Shown: positions 17,470 through 25,562 of the stretch, piece by piece
How positions within the stretch are numbered: position 1 is the stretch's first letter
Layout of the letters: each line of letters begins with the position of its first letter
NCBI GenBank assembly: GCA_001821395.1
Contig: MHLM01000015.1
Location: forward strand, 1-64,000
Origin: Candidatus Lloydbacteria bacterium RIFCSPHIGHO2_02_FULL_50_18
GTDB taxonomy: Bacteria > Patescibacteriota > Minisyncoccia > Phycocordibacterales > UBA6899
Reading direction: 5' to 3'
DNA: 64,000 nt
Notes under the pieces: generated by a model
What the model saw: only the letters and a program-made list of their open reading frames with translations
The model's database searches: none
What the model was told of the DNA's origin: nothing
Program-made: the position numbers and the translations under genes

Positions 17470-19827
17470 CTATTTTACCCCCGCGTACAAACTTCTCTGG
17501 AAATCAAAAAAGGTCGAGCGAATAGCGTCTACATCCCCGAGAATATCCACCGCATCAGCAATAGCGTGATATTTCAAATTGAGCAATTGCGGGAGCTTTT
17601 CTTCGTCGAGCTCCTCGACTCCGCGCTCGACATACTTAGCAAGTACGAACTCAAGAAAATCTTTTTGATCATCATTCAATCCGCCCAAGATTGCACTCTT
17701 GGCACCCAAAACACGATCGACGCGCGAGATTGGCTGTACGCAAAACGAGACATAAGCGAGCACGTCAAACAAATCACTGTTTTCCGCATCGATCATCTTT
17801 TGAAGTATCTCAAGCTCATCCTTCCCATACCCCGCCTCAGCAAGCTTATCGAGAAATACTTTTCTCGTACTTGGATTGGCCCAAATTTCACGAAGCTCAA
17901 CTTCATTCTTATAAAATGAAGGGAGTGCACCGAACATGTTGTTCATAAATTCCTCTACCGAGATCGGCTTCCCATCTGCGCTCCAAAATGAGGTGGAGAT
18001 CATATGCTTTATTTCTCGATCCTTTCCATCCCGCAACTTTATTTTAAGCTTTTGTATGGGTGGAGGCACATCGCACACGCACGGCTTCTGTCCGCACACA
18101 ACGCATGGCGCGGTCGGAGGCTTCACACACACACAGGGCGTCATACCACATGCTGCACAGGGTTGTTTCGGCGCTGGCTCCACTATCGGCTCATCAATGG
18201 GCTCTCCGTCCCACTCAGGGTCAGCGAAGTGATGATACGCATCCACAAAGTCATAGATAGTGAAATACTCCTTTCCGTCAAAGAGCCGAGTTCCTCGTCC
18301 AACGATCTGCTTAAACTCAATCATGGAGTTTACGGGGCGCATCAGTACAATATTGCGAATGTTTCGCGCATCGACTCCCGTCGAGAGCTTTTGTGAGGTA
18401 GTGAGGATGGTGGGGATACTTTTTTCATTATCCTGGAATTCTTTCAAATACTGATCCCCGCGAGCACCGTCATTGGCCGTCACGCGCACACAATAATTTG
18501 GCTCAGTGCTCTCTTTCATCTGATTCACCAAGTCACGCACTGCGAGTGCATGGTCTTGTGTTGCGCAAAAGATAATAGTCTTTTCGTTTTGATTTATCTC
18601 CTCAAGTATGACGCGTACACGCTTCGCCTCACGCTCCTTGATCTCGATGATCTTATTAAAGTCCGCCTCTTCGTAGATTTTTCCTTCCTCCACTTCCCCC
18701 TCGATGATCTGGTCGTCCGAAGTGTACACATAATCATCCATCGTCGTCTTGATACGCTTCACCTTAAATGGCGTCAGAAATCCGTCATTCACTCCGGTTT
18801 TGAGCGAGTAAGTGTATACGGGCTTTCCGAAATAGTTGTAGGTGTCCACGTTGTCTTGCCTGCGTGGCGTCGCGGTGAGCCCAAGGTGTACCGCAGGCGC
18901 GAAGTGCTCGAGGATCGCTCGCCAATTGCTCTCATCGTTCGCACCCCCACGATGACACTCGTCAATAATGATCAGATCAAAAAAGTCCGAGGGATAGTCC
19001 CCGAAATATGGCGAACCATTTTGCCCGCTCATAAAAGTCTGGAATATGGTGAAAAAGATGCTCCCATTTGTGGGCACAGCACCCTTCTTCCGTATATCAA
19101 GTGGATTAATGCGCACAAGTGCATCCTCATGGAAAGCCGAGAATGAATTAAATGCCTGATTTGCTAAAATATTTCTGTCGGCAAGAAAGAGGATTCTCGG
19201 GCGCCTCCCTCCATCTCGCGCCAAGTTCCATCGTGACTGAAAAAGCTTCCACGCGATCTGAAATGCAATAAAAGTTTTCCCCGTGCCTGTCGCAAGCGTT
19301 AGAAGCGCCCGTTGCTTGTTTTCCGCAATTGCATCGAGTGTATTGTTCACGGCAATTTCTTGATAGTATCGCGCACTCTTTGTGCCGTTCATATCCTCAA
19401 ACGGGACAGCGGCAAATTTCTCCTTCCATGCATTTTGGTCAGAATAGACCATGTTCCATAATTCATCAGGAGTCGGGAAACGTTCCACATATTTCTCCGC
19501 ACCCGTCTCCATGCATATCTCGTATATTTCTTTGCCGTTAGTGGCATAGGTATATTTGATCTCAAGTTTCTCAGCATAAGCCTTCGCCTGTGCGACGCCC
19601 TCCGTCGCCGAGAGTCCCTCATGCTTTGCCTCCACAACCCCGATCTTCATGTTTTTATAAACCAAAATATAGTCAGCGATCTCAGGCTTCCCGCGTACTC
19701 CACCAGTCATAATGCGTCCGAGGGTTATGCGAAACTCCCGCAGGACCTTCGATCCCTCGATCTCGCCCCATCCGGCTTCTTTCAGCTTCGGATCAACATA
19801 TTCCGCTCGTGTTTCAGATTCATTCAT
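17470..19827 (-). CDS. hsdR: type I restriction enzyme R subunit
   Basis: N-terminal PD-(D/E)xK (ADYIL...VVEAKHEG). SF2 motifs (LATGTGKTF, DECHRG, TATPRRQ, motifs V/VI). EcoEI-R-type C-terminal domain. Unusual Cys-rich insert at 18067-18159. Confidence 0.85.
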   Translation of the reverse strand: MNESETRAEYVDPKLKEAGWGEIEGSKVLREFRITLGRIMTGGVRGKPEIADYILVYKNMKIGVVEAKHEGLSATEGVAQAKAYAEKLEIKYTYATNGKEIYEICMETGAEKYVERFPTPDELWNMVYSDQNAWKEKFAAVPFEDMNGTKSARYYQEIAVNNTLDAIAENKQRALLTLATGTGKTFIAFQIAWKLFQSRWNLARDGGRRPRILFLADRNILANQAFNSFSAFHEDALVRINPLDIRKKGAVPTNGSIFFTIFQTFMSGQNGSPYFGDYPSDFFDLIIIDECHRGGANDESNWRAILEHFAPAVHLGLTATPRRQDNVDTYNYFGKPVYTYSLKTGVNDGFLTPFKVKRIKTTMDDYVYTSDDQIIEGEVEEGKIYEEADFNKIIEIKEREAKRVRVILEEINQNEKTIIFCATQDHALAVRDLVNQMKESTEPNYCVRVTANDGARGDQYLKEFQDNEKSIPTILTTSQKLSTGVDARNIRNIVLMRPVNSMIEFKQIVGRGTRLFDGKEYFTIYDFVDAYHHFADPEWDGEPIDEPIVEPAPKQPCAACGMTPCVCVKPPTAPCVVCGQKPCVCDVPPPIQKLKIKLRDGKDREIKHMISTSFWSADGKPISVEEFMNNMFGALPSFYKNEVELREIWANPSTRKVFLDKLAEAGYGKDELEILQKMIDAENSDLFDVLAYVSFCVQPISRVDRVLGAKSAILGGLNDDQKDFLEFVLAKYVERGVEELDEEKLPQLLNLKYHAIADAVDILGDVDAIRSTFFDFQRSLYAGVK

Positions 19828-20477
19828 GATGATTGTTTCGCACCATACTGCTTAACTGCCACACCGTCATATCTTTCTTTGAGTCCCTCATAAATAAGAC
19901 TCACGAGGGGCTTATAATCATCGGCATGATCGATTTGCGCAAGCGCCTGACGGTAGCGATTCTTATTTTCCTTTTCTACTTTTATTGATATACCAATTAA
20001 CCCGTAGCGCTCCAAAATCAAATTCGCAGCAAGACGAGCAGTGCGTCCGTTCCCATCCCGAAATGGATGAACGCAGGTGATAGAATAATGCAACCATGCC
20101 GCCAGATGAATAACTCGCTCAACCGTCTGATGGACTTTCGCCATGCTTACATTTTTTCCTCTTATTATTCCCTCTGCTTTATCTAGCGCTTGTAATTTTT
20201 TCTGCAACTCGACCTCCCTTTCGTTCATGAGGTCATTTATTTTTGAGTGATGAGGGGGGACGTGACTTGAGTCTGTTATTTCAAGATTTTCCGTTCTATA
20301 CTTTCCCGCAATATCAGGCCAGGCATCTTTGAATATTTCCCGATGAATTTCCTTGATCGTTTCAATCGAAATACCCTTGTGTGATCGTGCAAATTTTCTT
20401 ACAAAACGAGAAGCGCGGATCACTCCAATCGCTTCTCGTTTTTGTAACTCTTCTTCCGAGCGCGGACACTCTACCAT
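19824..20477 (-). CDS. Fic/DOC-family protein (putative AMPylating toxin, FicT-like)
   Basis: Fic motif HPFRDGNGRTARL. Confidence 0.85.
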   Translation of the reverse strand: MVECPRSEEELQKREAIGVIRASRFVRKFARSHKGISIETIKEIHREIFKDAWPDIAGKYRTENLEITDSSHVPPHHSKINDLMNEREVELQKKLQALDKAEGIIRGKNVSMAKVHQTVERVIHLAAWLHYSITCVHPFRDGNGRTARLAANLILERYGLIGISIKVEKENKNRYRQALAQIDHADDYKPLVSLIYEGLKERYDGVAVKQYGAKQSS

Positions 20478-20485
20478 GGCAATGC

Positions 20486-20680
20486 TTACGCTACTTTTAG
20501 CGCAAGTTTTTCAAATTCCCCGCGATCAAGCTTGCTTCCCTCAAGCGCACTCGAATAATAGGCATGCTCAATATCCCAACTTTTTTCAAGGGCGGATTTT
20601 TGTTTTGGCGTAAGCTGAGAAATCTGTCGTTCTGCAACTTTCTTACTCGCCATTAACTGTACGAGCCGTAGATTCTTCAT
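20486..20680 (-). CDS. FicA/VbhA-like small antitoxin carrying the inhibitory [S/T]xxxE[G/N] helix motif
   Basis: 64-aa ORF. Motif IEHAYYSSALEGS. Its stop lies 9 nt before the Fic ATG, in a different frame. Confidence 0.55.
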   Translation of the reverse strand: MKNLRLVQLMASKKVAERQISQLTPKQKSALEKSWDIEHAYYSSALEGSKLDRGEFEKLALKVA

Positions 20681-20772
20681 GGATATGACTATACCACTAT
20701 TTGACTATTTTACAACTCCTCATGTTTCAGGGGTGACTCCTTGGCCTTGAAAGGTGTCTCCTCGGAAACTGC

Positions 20773-21978
20773 TCACAACTCCCCAGCAAAGGCCTTTTTC
20801 AACACTGATTTTTTAAGCTCCTCAATATCAGCAAGTTTTTGCCCGTAGATTCCTTCAAGTTTTTTTGTCTGCTCCGCAAGCGCATCGAGCTTTTTGACGA
20901 TGGTTTTTTGCTCTGAGACAGATGGAAATGGAAACCGCTCATGCTCAAACGTTGCCATGTTGATATTGGCCTGCGCACTTCCTTTTCCTTTTGCCTGGAG
21001 TACTGCCTTAAATGATTGCAAAAGATACTCGACAAAATTAGTATCTGCAATTTTGGGATTAGCAACAAGTCCGATCACGCTATCAGGAAAACACGCATCG
21101 AAATTCAGAATTCCAGTTTCTGCGATATTCGCCGCAATCGTAATGCAGATAGTTCCTCTCGGCCACAGCTTGCTCTGCGCCAGTCCCGCCTCGCTATACG
21201 ACTGTGAGTACTCCACAATAAAGTGTCCAGAATTTCGAATATCTCCCGTCTGAATAAAGGGGTACTTTCCGCCATAGAGTTTTTTGTCGTTTCTTGGGCG
21301 ATGCTTAGATTTTCCTCTGCCGAATTGCAGGGAGACTTCTTCTAGCGTCTTTTTCTCCCATTTCGAATTTTCAAAAACCCCCTGCAAATACGATTCAAAA
21401 AGTTCGCGGGAATTCTTCAAATTCTTCTCCGCATTCTCCTTCGCCTTCTCCACTCCCTCAAAAACCTCATCAAGAATTTTTACGATGCGCTTTTGCTCGA
21501 TCGCAGAAGGAAAAGGTATCTCAACCTCTTTTAATTTTGTTCCAGAAAGTTCCTTAAAAGTTGTACCACTACCCAAACTATTCAAAAGTTCAACTGAATC
21601 TTTCAAAAAATAATAGAGAAATTTTGTATCAAGATTTTTATTCGGTATTAATCCCTTACACCCCTGATTTGTTGAAATTTCTTTTGTGTTTATCGCCAAG
21701 TGACCAATCGGAGCACGGGTAGACAAAATAATCGAGTTGGGTGGAATGATTTTTGCTGACGACCTTTCTAATCCAGCCTTTGAAATTTTTCGTTCTGTTT
21801 CCTCAACGTATATTTTCCTAAGTCTCCCCATGTCTTTGGGTGTGATCCACAAAATATTTCCATCCCAGTACCTCAAAACGCCCGTTTTAGGAGTTCCTCC
21901 GTTTACAATCTCGCAAACCTCCCCAAGTTTTTTTATTTGCCAGTTAGTTTTCATAGTGAGAAATAATTTGCTTTCCAT
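20773..21978 (-). CDS. hsdS: type I restriction-modification specificity subunit
   Basis: Two target-recognition-domain layout with conserved central/C-terminal helices. TRD motif EIVNGGTPKT. Alternative start ATG at 21954. Confidence 0.85.
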   Translation of the reverse strand: MESKLFLTMKTNWQIKKLGEVCEIVNGGTPKTGVLRYWDGNILWITPKDMGRLRKIYVEETERKISKAGLERSSAKIIPPNSIILSTRAPIGHLAINTKEISTNQGCKGLIPNKNLDTKFLYYFLKDSVELLNSLGSGTTFKELSGTKLKEVEIPFPSAIEQKRIVKILDEVFEGVEKAKENAEKNLKNSRELFESYLQGVFENSKWEKKTLEEVSLQFGRGKSKHRPRNDKKLYGGKYPFIQTGDIRNSGHFIVEYSQSYSEAGLAQSKLWPRGTICITIAANIAETGILNFDACFPDSVIGLVANPKIADTNFVEYLLQSFKAVLQAKGKGSAQANINMATFEHERFPFPSVSEQKTIVKKLDALAEQTKKLEGIYGQKLADIEELKKSVLKKAFAGEL

Positions 21979-23113
21979 TCTGTATCAATTGGTCGTAAGT
22001 GAGAATGTCTATATCATGTAAACTAGAGTTTAAAAAATGAAGAGCTTTTTTCTCATCCTCAGTAAAGGCATCTGACCGACCGAGAATGAGCTGGACTCTT
22101 GGTCTTAGTATTCGAACAGAGTGCTGAATCGACAAAGTTTTTTTATAGTCTTCGATTCTTTGTAAATAAATTAAGGACTGACCAATTGCTTCCGAGAAAG
22201 GGCTCGTAGGGAAATGGCAACGATGCGAAGTATCATATCTAAACAGCGGGCTGCCGACACTTGGCCTCTTAACTTCAATGAGGCTGATAAATCCATCGGG
22301 CGTTTCGAGTACGATGTCTGCCTCAGAGTTATCTTCTCCAATCTTCCTGAATGTGTGCTTTTTGTAGTACTCGACTCCAAAAACCCACAAATTAGCCCCA
22401 ATCCATTTATGAAACACACCCTCTGGTTGATTTGCGTGATATTTCTTTAGTGCACCATTTCCTTTTATTGCCTCAAGGAAATTCACGTCAGATTCGATGC
22501 TTAAAAGGTATTCTAAATTAGCAATAGCCTCTTTGTGTTCTTTTTGTTTTATTGCTGCGCTCAAACTCTCGACGTCAAGGGCATCAATATTCTCAATAAA
22601 CTTCTGAAATAAACTATTTCTTTCAGCGGTGCCCAACTTATTAAAAAGCTGAAACAGCTGATCAGATGTTAATGCTTGCGACCCATGCAATAACTGTGAA
22701 AATGCATTCTTTCGCTCCACAAGTTCACTTACGTTTTGATCAGTAAATTTTAAATTTTCCTTAGAAGTTAAGTCCAGTAAATCTAATGATTCAAGAAACT
22801 TAATAAAGCGAGTAAGTGCTCCTCCATGAAAACTGAAAGATTGATTATGTGGTATGCCAGTATCTTTTGAAAATCTTTGAATGCGCAATGAAAACCCAGT
22901 GGTGTCTTGATTATAAATAGCGGTTATTTCTTGCACTGCGCTTTCGCGTATGACCTCAAAAACTTTCTTTTCTTTTTGATCGTTATAAAAATCTTTAAAA
23001 TCTTTTAGCTCAAATACTTTTGAAATGTATCTGATGTTCCCATCTTTCCCAATCGCCCTACTCACATAAGTAAGTGCGGGGTCTTTTTTGATCGCATACT
23101 CTCCATTGCTCAT
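21944..23113 (-). CDS. uncharacterised protein with a putative PD-(D/E)xK nuclease core, nested between hsdM and hsdS (possibly DUF4263/Shedu-like; candidate accessory defence gene)
   Basis: 389 aa. Motif SEADIVLETPDGFISLIEVKRP (D...E-x-K). The gene overlaps both neighbours by a few nt, so it is in the operon. Confidence 0.5.
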   Translation of the reverse strand: MSNGEYAIKKDPALTYVSRAIGKDGNIRYISKVFELKDFKDFYNDQKEKKVFEVIRESAVQEITAIYNQDTTGFSLRIQRFSKDTGIPHNQSFSFHGGALTRFIKFLESLDLLDLTSKENLKFTDQNVSELVERKNAFSQLLHGSQALTSDQLFQLFNKLGTAERNSLFQKFIENIDALDVESLSAAIKQKEHKEAIANLEYLLSIESDVNFLEAIKGNGALKKYHANQPEGVFHKWIGANLWVFGVEYYKKHTFRKIGEDNSEADIVLETPDGFISLIEVKRPSVGSPLFRYDTSHRCHFPTSPFSEAIGQSLIYLQRIEDYKKTLSIQHSVRILRPRVQLILGRSDAFTEDEKKALHFLNSSLHDIDILTYDQLIQNGKQIISHYEN

Positions 23114-24555
23114 AACAAGTTTTTCAATATCTGAGCACTTTCTTTATCCAATTTCTCCATTTCCTTCAAAATCTCCTTCGGGGTGCGCAGCGCTACCTCA
23201 CCTCCCTTGTTTGGATTCTTTGCCGATAGGTCGAAGGTCTTCTGGTCGACGTCTTTTATGTCTATGCTCCATGAATTTTCAGAATCACCATTCGTCTCTT
23301 GGAGTTTTATAAAATCAGCAAGGTCGGCTTCGTTGAGTGCATTGGTCTTGCCGAGGTTGCGGTCGAGGTTGAGCTGATAGAACCAGACTTTTTTCGTTGG
23401 TGCACCCTTCTCAAAAAAGAGTATGACCGTTTTCACCCCTGCACCAGTGAATGTGCCACCTGGCAGGTCGAGCACGGTGTGGAGATTGCAACTTTCAAGC
23501 AGCATTTTGCGAAGCGACACCGAAGCATTGTCGGTGTTGGAAAGAAAGGTGTTTTTGATGACCACACCCGCTTTTCCTCCGGCTTTCAGCATTTTGATGA
23601 AATGCTGGAGAAAAAGAAATGCCGTCTCTCCCGTTTTGATAGGAAAATTCTGCTGTACCTCAGGTCTCTCTGAGCCTCCAAATGGCGGATTCGCAAGCAC
23701 GATCTCATAGCGGTCTTTCTCCTGAATATCCGCAAGGTTTTCGGCAAGTGTGTTGGTGTGAATGATGTTCGGAGCCTCGATGCCATGGAGAATCATGTTC
23801 ATGATGCCAATGATGTAGGCGAGCGATTTCTTCTCCTTGCCGTAAAATGTCTTCTTCTGAAGTGTCTGCATGTCGCTTGTCGAAAGCTTCTTGCTCTCCT
23901 TCAAGTATTCAAACGCTTCCACGAGGAATCCCGCCGAGCCCACAGCCCCATCATAGACTTTATCGCCGATTTTTGGAGCGACCACCTTCACGATGGTCTT
24001 GATGAGTGGGCGCGGGGTGTAGTACTCGCCACCATTGCGCCCTGCGTTGCCCATGTTCTTTATCTTGCCCTCGTAAAGGTGTGAAAGCTCGTGCTTTTCG
24101 CTCTGCGAGCGAAAGTGCATTCCATCCACGAGGTTCAGCACCTCGCGGAGGTTGTACCCACTTTGTATCTTGTTTTTGATCTCGCTAAAAATTTCTCCGA
24201 TCTTGTACTCGATCGTGTCGGGACTCACTGCATCCGCCTTGAATTTCTTGAAATACGGAAAAAGCTCGCGCTCGACGAAATCCTTAAGGTCATCACCCGA
24301 CAGTGCTTTGCTGTGGTCAATCTTCTTATCTCCTGTCTTGGGCACTGCCCACACTTCCCAGCGAAACTTCGGCGAGATGATATATTCGTATTTTTTACCT
24401 GCGAGCTTCGCCTCGGTCTCCTTATCCTTTTCAAGATCATCAAGATACTTGAGAAAGAGCACCCACGAAGTCTGCTCGATATAATCCAGCTCACTCGACG
24501 CCCCCGCATCCTTACGCAATATGTCATCAATATTTTTAAAGTGTTGTTCAAACAT
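23110..24555 (-). CDS. hsdM: type I restriction-modification N6-adenine DNA methyltransferase
   Basis: HsdM N-terminal domain. SAM-binding motif DGAVGSAGFL. Catalytic motif NPPFG. Start moved to ATG 24555 because the longer ORF would overlap the tRNA. Confidence 0.9.
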   Translation of the reverse strand: MFEQHFKNIDDILRKDAGASSELDYIEQTSWVLFLKYLDDLEKDKETEAKLAGKKYEYIISPKFRWEVWAVPKTGDKKIDHSKALSGDDLKDFVERELFPYFKKFKADAVSPDTIEYKIGEIFSEIKNKIQSGYNLREVLNLVDGMHFRSQSEKHELSHLYEGKIKNMGNAGRNGGEYYTPRPLIKTIVKVVAPKIGDKVYDGAVGSAGFLVEAFEYLKESKKLSTSDMQTLQKKTFYGKEKKSLAYIIGIMNMILHGIEAPNIIHTNTLAENLADIQEKDRYEIVLANPPFGGSERPEVQQNFPIKTGETAFLFLQHFIKMLKAGGKAGVVIKNTFLSNTDNASVSLRKMLLESCNLHTVLDLPGGTFTGAGVKTVILFFEKGAPTKKVWFYQLNLDRNLGKTNALNEADLADFIKLQETNGDSENSWSIDIKDVDQKTFDLSAKNPNKGGEVALRTPKEILKEMEKLDKESAQILKNLL

Positions 24556-24561
24556 TTTTTT

Positions 24562-24637
24562 TGGTGGACCATGGGAGAATCGAACTCCCCACCTCTTCCA
24601 TGCCATGGAAGCGCTCTACCAAATGAGCTAATGGCCC
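24562..24637 (-). tRNA. tRNA-Ala (anticodon GGC), CCA encoded
   Basis: Manual fold: acceptor GGGCCAT/ATGGTCC with G3:U70. D-arm GCTC-ATTTGGTA-GAGC. Anticodon loop ATGGCAT. T-arm GGGAG-TTCGATT-CTCCC. 76 nt. Confidence 0.85.
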
Positions 24638-24892
24638 GTAGAAAGATGATAACTTACAAATGGGTTTTCTTCAATGAAGACGGGGGGGGTCGAGTCGTGA
24701 AGGGAGTCGAAGCTTATTCGAGATCGTCATCGCAAGCTTTGTGGAGATGGCAAGTCGTGTAGTGCGTTGCCGGAGGGCAACACTGCTACGAAAAAGCCAA
24801 CCGGGTGTCTGGCTTTGCGGACTTGGCTTACAGCTTCAGTACGCCTTTTCGATTTATTCAGAGCGAAGCTCTTCATAAATAACGAAAAGCCC

Positions 24893-24988
24893 TTCGACTC
24901 CCCGCCGCAAGTGAAGCAGTTCACTTGCTTGAGTCCACAGGTACAAAAAAATTACGATTTCTCGTAATTTTTTTGTACCTGTGGACTC
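24893..24988. repeat. Inverted partial copy of the tRNA-Ala(CGC) 3' half (T-loop, GCAG-loop hairpin insert, acceptor 3' strand) followed by a 27-bp perfect inverted repeat / bidirectional terminator
   Basis: ttcgactccccg (24893-24904). Hairpin gcaagtgaa-gcag-ttcacttgc (24907-24928). Arms 24931-24957 / 24962-24988 with loop tttc. Confidence 0.6.
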
Positions 24989-25052
24989 ACGGGGAGTCGA
25001 ACCCCGGACTCGGCAATGCGAATGCCGTGTAATACCACTTTACTATGAGCCC
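24982..25052 (-). tRNA. tRNA-Ala (anticodon CGC), CCA not encoded
   Basis: Manual fold: acceptor GGGCTCA/TGAGTCC with G3:U70. Anticodon arm CGGCA-TTCGCAT-TGCCG. T-arm CGGGG-TTCGACT-CCCCG. Confidence 0.8.
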
Positions 25053-25095
25053 AGTAGGCGAATAGTAGCGAATTTATCCGTGGGGTGCAAATTGT

Positions 25096-25140
25096 TGGAC
25101 CGTACAGGAATCTCGGCTACCGCCGCGGGTGATATTCAAT
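25096..25140. repeat. Repeat copy 2: 14-nt antisense copy of the tRNA-Ala(UGC) 3' end (tggaccgtacagga) fused to the same 34-nt element as 4539-4572; first unit of a degenerate tandem array of tRNA-3' fragments (cgtacaggaat at 25101, 25145 and 25314)
   Basis: Exact 34/34 identity with 4539-4572. Repeated cgtacaggaat and ccagtttc-r-attt strings between 25096 and 25420. Confidence 0.65.
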
Positions 25141-25398
25141 TTCGTACAGGAATTTCGACGCCTACTGCGTCAGTACCCAGTTTCAATTTGAATACAGGAC
25201 TCTTCCTCTACGAGGACAGTATACCTTTCACCACAGAGAGTACTTCTTGTTTTCTAGCTCACTTCGTTCGTAAGTAAACAATGTCGTCCGTTTACTGAGG
25301 ATAAGAATCCTGCCGTACAGGAATCTCTCCCCTTACAGGGGCAGTGTCCAGTTTCGATTTACTCAAAATAGGAATTTCTCGTAAATATCGAAACAGGC

Positions 25399-25500
25399 TT
25401 CGAGTCCTTACGCAAGCAATGCAGATTGCTTGCTACGGTCCACACCATATAAGAAAAAACTGCCTTACGGCAGTTTTTACTTTATGGTGTGGACCGTACA
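25399..25500. repeat. Inverted partial copy of the tRNA-Ala(UGC) 3' half with GCAG-loop hairpin insert, plus a long imperfect inverted repeat / terminator
   Basis: ttcgagtcct (25399-25408). Hairpin gcaagcaat-gcag-attgcttgc (25412-25433). tacggtccacacc (25434-25446) inverted against gtgtggaccgta (25486-25497). Terminator aaaaactgcc-ttac-ggcagttttt. Confidence 0.55.
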
Positions 25501-25562
25501 GGACTCGAACCTGCCACCCCCGCATTGCAAATGCGGTGCTCTACCAGATGAGCTAACGGCCC
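25490..25562 (-). tRNA. tRNA-Ala (anticodon UGC), CCA not encoded
   Basis: Manual fold: acceptor GGGCCGT/ACGGTCC with G3:U70. Anticodon arm CCGCA-TTTGCAA-TGCGG. T-arm GCAGG-TTCGAGT-CCTGT. Confidence 0.85.

Follow-up and report, generated by a model that had tools for sequence, protein, structure and literature searches.

A conserved small gene and a Fic gene form a two-gene module of class I architecture, probably of class II ancestry, in Patescibacteria

The window analysed here, the whole 64,000-nucleotide (nt) stretch of contig MHLM01000015.1 from Candidatus Lloydbacteria bacterium RIFCSPHIGHO2_02_FULL_50_18, contains an open reading frame (ORF) of 64 amino acids (aa) that directly precedes the gene of a 217-aa Fic-domain protein, and this pair is our subject. 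All features described are on the minus strand, and the gene order is hsdM, a Shedu SduA-like gene, hsdS, the small ORF with the Fic gene, and hsdR. The original prediction had placed the pair between hsdS and hsdR and proposed either a FicT/FicA-like class I toxin-antitoxin (TA) pair or a class II Fic gene split by a frameshift. Our analysis indicates that the two genes probably constitute a true Fic module with the architecture of class I, derived from a class II (FICD-like) Fic protein by an ancient fission.

Two proteins encoded at the locus

The features of the module, in the order in which they would be expressed, are as follows.

20688..20715, minus strand: promoter-like site TTGTAA-16 nt-(TG)TATAGT, a putative promoter from a consensus scan
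20486..20680, minus strand: 64-aa small protein, a putative detached inhibitory-helix subunit (antitoxin-like), from the ORF, its homologues, hhalign and an AlphaFold2 (AF2) model
20537..20554, minus strand: inhibition motif S43-S44-A45-L46-E47-G48, which fits [S/T]xxxE[G/N]
20478..20485, minus strand: spacer gcattgcc, 8 nt, from the small-ORF TAA to the Fic ATG
19824..20477, minus strand: 217-aa Fic-domain protein with a FICD-like fold, from Pfam, AF2, Foldseek and hhalign
20034..20069, minus strand: active-site motif H137-P-F-R-D-G-N-G-R-T-A-R148 (HxFx[D/E]GNGRxxR)
19824..19827, minus strand: ATGA overlap of the Fic stop with the hsdR start

The canonical Fic motif that had been predicted for the 217-aa protein was borne out: Pfam Fic (PF02661) matched it with an E value of 1.8e-20 (74 bits against a cutoff of 24), and the motif residues H137, P138, F139, G142, N143, G144, R145 and R148 were invariant among 31 homologues. 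The AF2 model of this protein had a predicted local distance difference test score (pLDDT) of 84.5. Its N-terminus is the equivalent of helix alpha1, with no inhibitory helix in cis, and neither terminus carries a functional one.

The separate ORF upstream likewise carries the [S/T]xxxE[G/N] motif attributed to it, as S43xxxE47G48. The small protein, which ends in IEHAYYSSALEGSKLDRGEFEKLALKVA directly before the stop codon, had 187 homologues, nearly all of 64 aa, with the block WD[IV]EHAYYSSxLEGS invariant among them. An alignment of 34 homologues contained 13 invariant columns, including S43, S44, E47 and G48. Per-site differences in the small ORF were 0.217, 0.125 and 0.501 at the first, second and third codon positions, and this third-position bias shows that the ORF is under purifying selection. 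Given the homologues, the invariant columns and the codon-position differences, the small ORF is a real gene and more than a chance reading frame. Its AF2 model consists of three helices (pLDDT 89), with E47-G48 capping helix 2; E47 is the predicted inhibitory glutamate and possibly also the deAMPylation glutamate. The protein had no match in Pfam, NCBIfam, PADLOC or PHROGs.

Several further observations concern the small gene (L numbers designate loci). It is uncalled in the gene sets of some assemblies (L164 and L167, with DNA identical to window positions 20486-20680), and the exact 64-aa sequence is without an NCBI source; an antitoxin-like small gene of this kind can readily escape annotation. 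More distant free-standing proteins of 60-81 aa (P0256 and P0259-P0270) keep the pattern ..EH.Y.SS.[IL]EG[ST].LT, and detached class II-type inhibitory helices may extend beyond this one family. Orphan small ORFs with no Fic gene downstream lie at 4962-5192 of L127 and 2119-2313 of L147, where they are followed by a 543-aa ORF and by an unrelated 80-aa ORF, respectively; in L132 and L146, a match search alone found no Fic match downstream of the small ORF. At 35-313 and 838-1208 of L131, a Fic fragment is followed by a complete small ORF and then by the start of another Fic gene, an arrangement that may represent tandem modules or a rearrangement.

The split and its origin

The two ORFs are in different frames, as had been predicted, with the Fic gene +2/-1 relative to the small ORF; the distance between them, given as 9 nt, is 8 nt. 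The Fic frame is open for just 14 codons upstream of its ATG, so a single shift within gaaaaacttgcgctaaaagtagcg would fuse both ORFs. The pair could accordingly be read as a class II Fic gene in which a 1-nt indel has interrupted the frame, through sequencing or assembly error or a recent pseudogenizing frameshift, and the short A runs at the junction and the colinearity of the fusion with FICD would suit such an event. However, the exact 217-aa Fic protein is present on 17 contigs, and the junction was identical in all eight contigs fetched, which represent at least seven samples and ENA, JGI and Logan assemblies. The whole 897-nt module was identical in six of the eight, and the remaining two, which are shorter, showed no mismatch over the 834 nt that they cover.

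Related loci gave the same picture. A metagenome scan with the small-protein alignment returned 80 loci, of which 67 non-redundant ones hold both genes. In these 67 loci, the small ORF always ends in a stop codon (TAA in 50, TAG in 16 and TGA in 1), the Fic gene initiates with ATG in 65, and the gap between the two ranges from -1 to 20 nt, apart from one of 63 nt. The frame of the Fic gene relative to the small ORF is 0, +1 or +2 in 20, 26 and 21 loci, respectively. The Met start is homologous across the aligned Fic homologues (M..RP..EEELQKREAIGVIRASRF). When an artificial fusion of the two proteins was used as the query, the best 120 of 322 homologues (57-100% identity) were all 203-239 aa long and covered only the Fic portion, 70-76% of the query. 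A HMMER profile of the small protein, searched against 1.84 billion representative proteins, yielded 30 hits, which were free-standing proteins of 41-112 aa except for two repetitive or low-complexity outliers of 155 and 494 aa; none of the 30 was a fusion of the small protein with Fic, and none was a Fic N-terminus. In addition, the pairwise identities of the small protein and the Fic protein are correlated (r 0.52; Mantel test, 0 of 2,000 permutations). The small ORF and the Fic gene are therefore separate, conserved and co-inherited genes.

These results refute a sequencing error or recent frameshift, since the junction is identical in eight assemblies while gap and frame vary among relatives that are all split, and we regard the chance of a broken gene as practically nil. 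A genuinely disrupted class II gene also looks different. At 5896-6594 of L016 (Lactobacillus kalixensis), the fragment SSNAIEGSSLTKYETAELLETGLTVHG, the inhibitory-helix part, lies in another frame and overlaps a 215-aa Fic ORF at its start, and an intact 270-aa relative is found in L015; L016 is thus a useful negative control for the appearance of a frameshift. A conserved stop and restart, with the frame free to vary across relatives, distinguish a real split gene from a frameshifted one.

A fused class II protein might also be made by programmed ribosomal frameshifting or stop-codon readthrough. The stop lies close to the next start across a short gap, and in the window an A5 run stands just upstream of the small-ORF stop. 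Nevertheless, with the three frame relations used near-equally and with gaps of variable length, no single recoding mechanism could be conserved, and the Fic gene has its own conserved ATG. No canonical slippery heptamer was seen when the window junction was read by eye. Programmed frameshifting was rejected on the frame statistics, and recoding of either kind is very improbable. The uniform use of all three frames makes error, recent frameshift and programmed frameshift alike unlikely.

The relationships of the two proteins point to where the split came from. The Fic protein matched human FICD in a phmmer search (E 2.5e-16), and the best Foldseek match of its model was FICD/HYPE (E 5e-10, template modelling score 0.68), followed by C. 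elegans Fic-1 and BT_2513. An artificial fusion of the two proteins aligned with FICD across the junction, scoring 70.2 bits against 63.0 for Fic alone, and placed SSALEGS opposite TVAIEGN, whose glutamate we take to be the inhibitory Glu234.

We then compared both families with ten single-chain class II relatives of about 265-330 aa (26-36% identity), which were archaeal (DPANN-type, for example Woesearchaeota and Micrarchaeota), cyanobacterial and from other bacteria. A profile scan of genome contigs with the Fic alignment had been swamped by the generic HPFR[ED]GNG pattern and gave one close locus, L001; its distant loci were reused as class II comparators. In hhalign, the Fic family aligned with class II columns 132-301 (E 1.7e-30) and the small-protein family with columns 82-118, the FTYNTNAIEGS region (E 9.5e-5, probability 59%). 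The closest relatives (about 310 aa, 30-36% identity) carry [ST]NAIEG about 17 residues ahead of the position that corresponds to Fic M1, where the motif also lies in the small ORF. Class II homology was thus found for the Fic core and for the inhibitory region, with the inhibitory helix on a different polypeptide. By alignment, the small gene and the Fic gene are jointly colinear with class II Fic proteins of a single chain, and the break falls in the loop that connects the inhibitory helix to helix alpha1.

This colinearity, together with the position of the motif in the single-chain relatives, led us to propose the ancient fission of a class II protein. The two alternatives originally offered therefore each contained part of the answer. 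A class I pair stands at the level of architecture, with the motif on a separate, conserved upstream polypeptide and the split fixed in every related locus examined. The class II Fic split by a frameshift fails as an error or recent mutation (8 assemblies, 67 loci) and holds as an ancient origin, given the colinearity. The comparison that had been suggested, with VbhT on the one hand and class II Fic proteins on the other, gave a weak match to VbhT and the best match to the class II protein FICD, with which both ORFs are colinear.

Expression, genomic context and proposed function

The -10 hexamer of the putative window promoter ends 7 nt before the small-ORF ATG, and a similar sequence, TTGTCA-17-TATAGT, was recognized by eye in L001. 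In the 67 loci, -10-like hexamers are most frequent 6-11 nt before the small-ORF ATG (33 in this bin, compared with about 3-5 in background bins), and a Shine-Dalgarno-like sequence precedes the small ORF in only one. Because the hexamers abut the ATG and Shine-Dalgarno sequences are nearly absent, the small-ORF mRNA appears to be leaderless or near-leaderless, a pattern that these signals suggest to be general in these Patescibacteria. No Shine-Dalgarno-like sequence was noted by eye in the 8-nt window spacer, and the very short gap makes it probable that translation of Fic is coupled to that of the small ORF.

The neighbouring genes of the window, which we treat as context outside the module, are as follows.

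17470..19827, minus strand: hsdR, type IB (EcoAI family) restriction subunit, from NCBIfam and Pfam
20773..21978, minus strand: hsdS, specificity subunit (Pfam Methylase_S 5.3e-60; PADLOC Specificity_I 3.5e-122)
21944..23113, minus strand: Shedu SduA-like nuclease gene between hsdM and hsdS, part of the defence island, from Pfam and PADLOC
23110..24606, minus strand: hsdM, methyltransferase subunit (Pfam N6_Mtase 2.3e-63; PADLOC MTase_I)

The predicted placement between hsdS and hsdR was correct for the window; it is not a property of the family. The ATGA overlap of 4 nt between Fic and hsdR recurs in L001, whose Fic protein is 78% identical to that of the window, and tblastn with the window Hsd proteins found a restriction-modification (RM) operon around the pair in these two loci only, out of about 70. 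Pfam scans of 88 flanking ORFs from other loci revealed no recurrent partner gene; the ORFs included three Zeta toxins, a TOTE primase, a transposase and helicases, as well as BipA, TrmD and Hsp70. The pair is therefore an autonomous module found in unrelated genomic contexts. The named sources of the homologues are almost all Patescibacteria, or Candidate Phyla Radiation (CPR), including Lloydbacteria, Wolfebacteria, Uhrbacteria and CPR1, and a scan of viral contigs found no phage-borne copy of the small ORF.

Type I RM operons are expected to have a separate hsdR promoter, and the promoter of the pair sits where that promoter would be. This position, the insertion between hsdS and hsdR with the ATGA overlap in both the window and L001, and the report of fic TA genes adjoining hsdMRS in other genomes (PMC5604120) could mean that the pair is an accessory of the restriction system, which modifies HsdR or acts as a PrrC-like second line when restriction is inhibited. 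However, the scarcity of RM linkage and the otherwise unrelated neighbours indicate that the functional unit is the pair itself. An RM-specific role was rejected as a family property, Hsd neighbours being confined to the window and L001, and we consider such a role improbable.

In the proposed mechanism, expression would start at the promoter abutting the small ORF, and Fic would be translated by coupling over the gap of a few nucleotides; in the window, hsdR would in turn be translationally coupled to Fic, a placement that is local and not a family trait. The small protein would bind the Fic core, and Glu47 would pair with Arg148 of the Fic motif, leaving ATP in a non-productive orientation and blocking AMPylation by the mechanism described previously (PMC3667792, PMC5033356). 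If the small protein were lost or out-titrated, free Fic would AMPylate a cellular target and arrest growth, which would amount to TA or abortive-infection behaviour. FICD and Fic-1-AntF, the latter a class I Fic complex shown to be a deAMPylase (PMC13327609), suggest by analogy that the complex may in addition deAMPylate.

Several observations weigh against a toxin-antitoxin-like module of this origin. Binding and inhibition are predicted from the motif and the colinearity only, and the statistical link of the small protein itself to class II inhibitory helices is modest at the hhalign values given above. A HMMER profile of the small protein found no match in the PDB, and Foldseek found none for its model. 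The C-terminal SLIYEG of the window Fic protein also fits the inhibition motif; within the family its S is variable and its E is E, D or Q, and a class III reading was rejected because neither residue is conserved. A few loci hold a small ORF without Fic (L127 and L147). The targets of FicT, GyrB and ParE, cannot be assumed for the window Fic protein. Finally, the small protein is conserved nearly as well as Fic (mean column identity 55% and 66%, respectively) and shows no DNA-binding domain, features that are as compatible with a permanent subunit of an enzyme as with a labile antitoxin.

The main rival is a non-toxic regulatory enzyme of two subunits. In this view, the small protein belongs permanently to a FICD-like AMPylase/deAMPylase and tunes the reversible modification of a housekeeping target, with no TA or defence role. 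The nearest relatives are of the FICD type, whose inhibitory glutamate is described as the deAMPylation catalyst (10.1101/323253, PMC6826200); the deAMPylase activity of a class I complex, the many housekeeping neighbours and the small protein's unusual conservation without a DNA-binding domain are also in keeping with this rival. On the other side, many Patescibacteria lineages carry the pair, in unrelated contexts and with no conserved neighbour, orphan small ORFs exist, Zeta toxin, TOTE, transposase, RM and Shedu genes co-occur with it, and the Fic half matches the PADLOC models PDC-S04 and SoFic. We favour a TA-like module because of the scattered contexts, the orphan small ORFs and the neighbours from defence systems and mobile elements, and we judge the purely regulatory enzyme to be unlikely, at about one chance in a handful.

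A more speculative proposal, to which we give slightly less credence still, is a split FICD: free Fic would AMPylate, the complex would deAMPylate via Glu47, the subunit ratio would set the direction, and the leaderless, coupled operon would set the ratio, with the same promoter and coupling driving hsdR in the window. If so, expression of the restriction subunit in this genome would be tied to the state of the module.

Under the preferred reading of an ancient fission, class I Fic architecture can arise by the division of a FICD-like class II enzyme. In addition, the 64-aa inhibitory-helix proteins of Patescibacteria emerge as a family of some size that lacks annotation. If the pair is toxic, it would be a TA or abortive-infection candidate for the sparse defence repertoire of these ultra-small bacteria; if it is non-toxic, it would offer a simple two-piece model of the control of FICD-type AMPylation and deAMPylation. 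The detached-inhibitor design itself is already known, and current understanding is not overturned.

The surroundings of the pair showed some features of their own. HsdR was identified as an EcoAI/type IB equivalog by NCBIfam restrict_EcoAI (817 bits, cutoff 550) and also matched ResIII and EcoEI_R_C in Pfam. A duplicated Cys-rich stretch, CAACGMTPCVC ... CVVCGQKPCVC, lies at about residues 556-590 (about 18060-18165, minus strand), between the helicase domains and the EcoEI_R_C domain, and is a possible metal-binding insertion. The Shedu gene (Pfam SduA_C 6.3e-14, PADLOC SduA 1.2e-33) overlaps hsdM by 4 nt and hsdS by 35 nt and is absent from the RM locus of L001, which is related; two distinct passengers, the Shedu gene and the Fic pair, have therefore entered the type IB operon of the window. 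GC content is 0.38-0.40 over hsdS and Shedu (21000-23000) and 0.43 over the Fic pair, compared with about 0.49 for the window, and these values are consistent with horizontally acquired DNA. Three tRNA-Ala genes (GGC, CGC and TGC) lie at 24562-25562 on the minus strand, directly upstream of hsdM, and this tRNA-flanked island suggests an integration hot spot. The first ATG of the listed hsdM ORF (24606) falls inside tRNA-Ala(GGC) at 24562-24637, so that translation probably starts at M18 (24555), and the PADLOC MTase_I match to HsdM begins at residue 18.

Comparison with known Fic systems

The architectural classes of Fic proteins and the mechanism of Fic inhibition were reportedly set out by Engel et al. 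in 2012. Among defence-associated proteins, the Fic core matches the PADLOC models of the candidate PDC-S04 (E 1.3e-23, model positions 30-203 of 205) and of SoFic (E 1.6e-21, a partial match to model positions 88-263 of 361), with an NCBIfam SoFic score of 33.6 bits against a cutoff of 550. SoFic, an anti-phage defence protein, is encoded by a Fic gene that stands alone (10.1101/2022.05.11.491447) and acts through toxicity, in the manner of abortive infection (PMC12249575). Unlike the window protein, SoFic is a single chain of class II, about 360 aa long, that includes a C-terminal domain. The gene of its reported antidote, AS1, lies downstream, and AS1 has no relation to an inhibitory helix (PMC12249575); it was rejected on these grounds as a counterpart of the small protein. 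No relevant description of a Fic TA system in Patescibacteria emerged from a literature search.

In class I systems, the inhibitory helix is by definition on a small protein encoded immediately upstream of Fic (PMC3667792, PMC5033356). The pair has the canonical HxFx(D/E)GNGRxxR motif and, in 67 of 67 loci, a separate upstream protein with [S/T]xxxE[G/N], so that it resembles the class I modules VbhT/VbhA, EcFicT/EcFicA and Fic-1/AntF in supplying the motif in trans from a small upstream gene and in consisting of two tightly spaced genes in one operon. In contrast to these modules, it is not a detectable homologue of their families, and VbhT and EcFicT matched the Fic protein weakly (phmmer E about 1e-3, Foldseek E about 2e-5); NCBIfam scores were likewise far below cutoff for VbhT (20.8 bits against 800) and PRK10347 Fic (24.7 against 181). 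The three-helix small protein has no similarity to VbhA or FicA. An N-terminal DPY lock is a feature of FicT-type class I proteins (PMC5033356), and by eye no DPY is present in the window Fic protein, whose N-terminus is MVECPRSEEELQKREAIGVIRASRF, or in the family consensus. The term FicT/FicA-like is thus inaccurate as a statement of homology and correct only as an analogy, the nearest relatives being FICD/HYPE and BT_2513, and by these comparisons the class I architecture of the pair appears to be independent of the FicT/VbhT lineage.

The class II proteins FICD/HYPE and BT_2513 are the best sequence and structure matches and carry the motif at the same distance upstream of alpha1. The window family differs from them in that it has no tetratricopeptide repeat, winged helix-turn-helix or other extra domains and, relative to FICD, has a family-specific insertion at Fic residues of about 88-118 that is gapped in the alignment. 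Above all, whereas FICD and BT_2513 are class II proteins, every member of the window family examined carries its inhibitory helix on a separate polypeptide.

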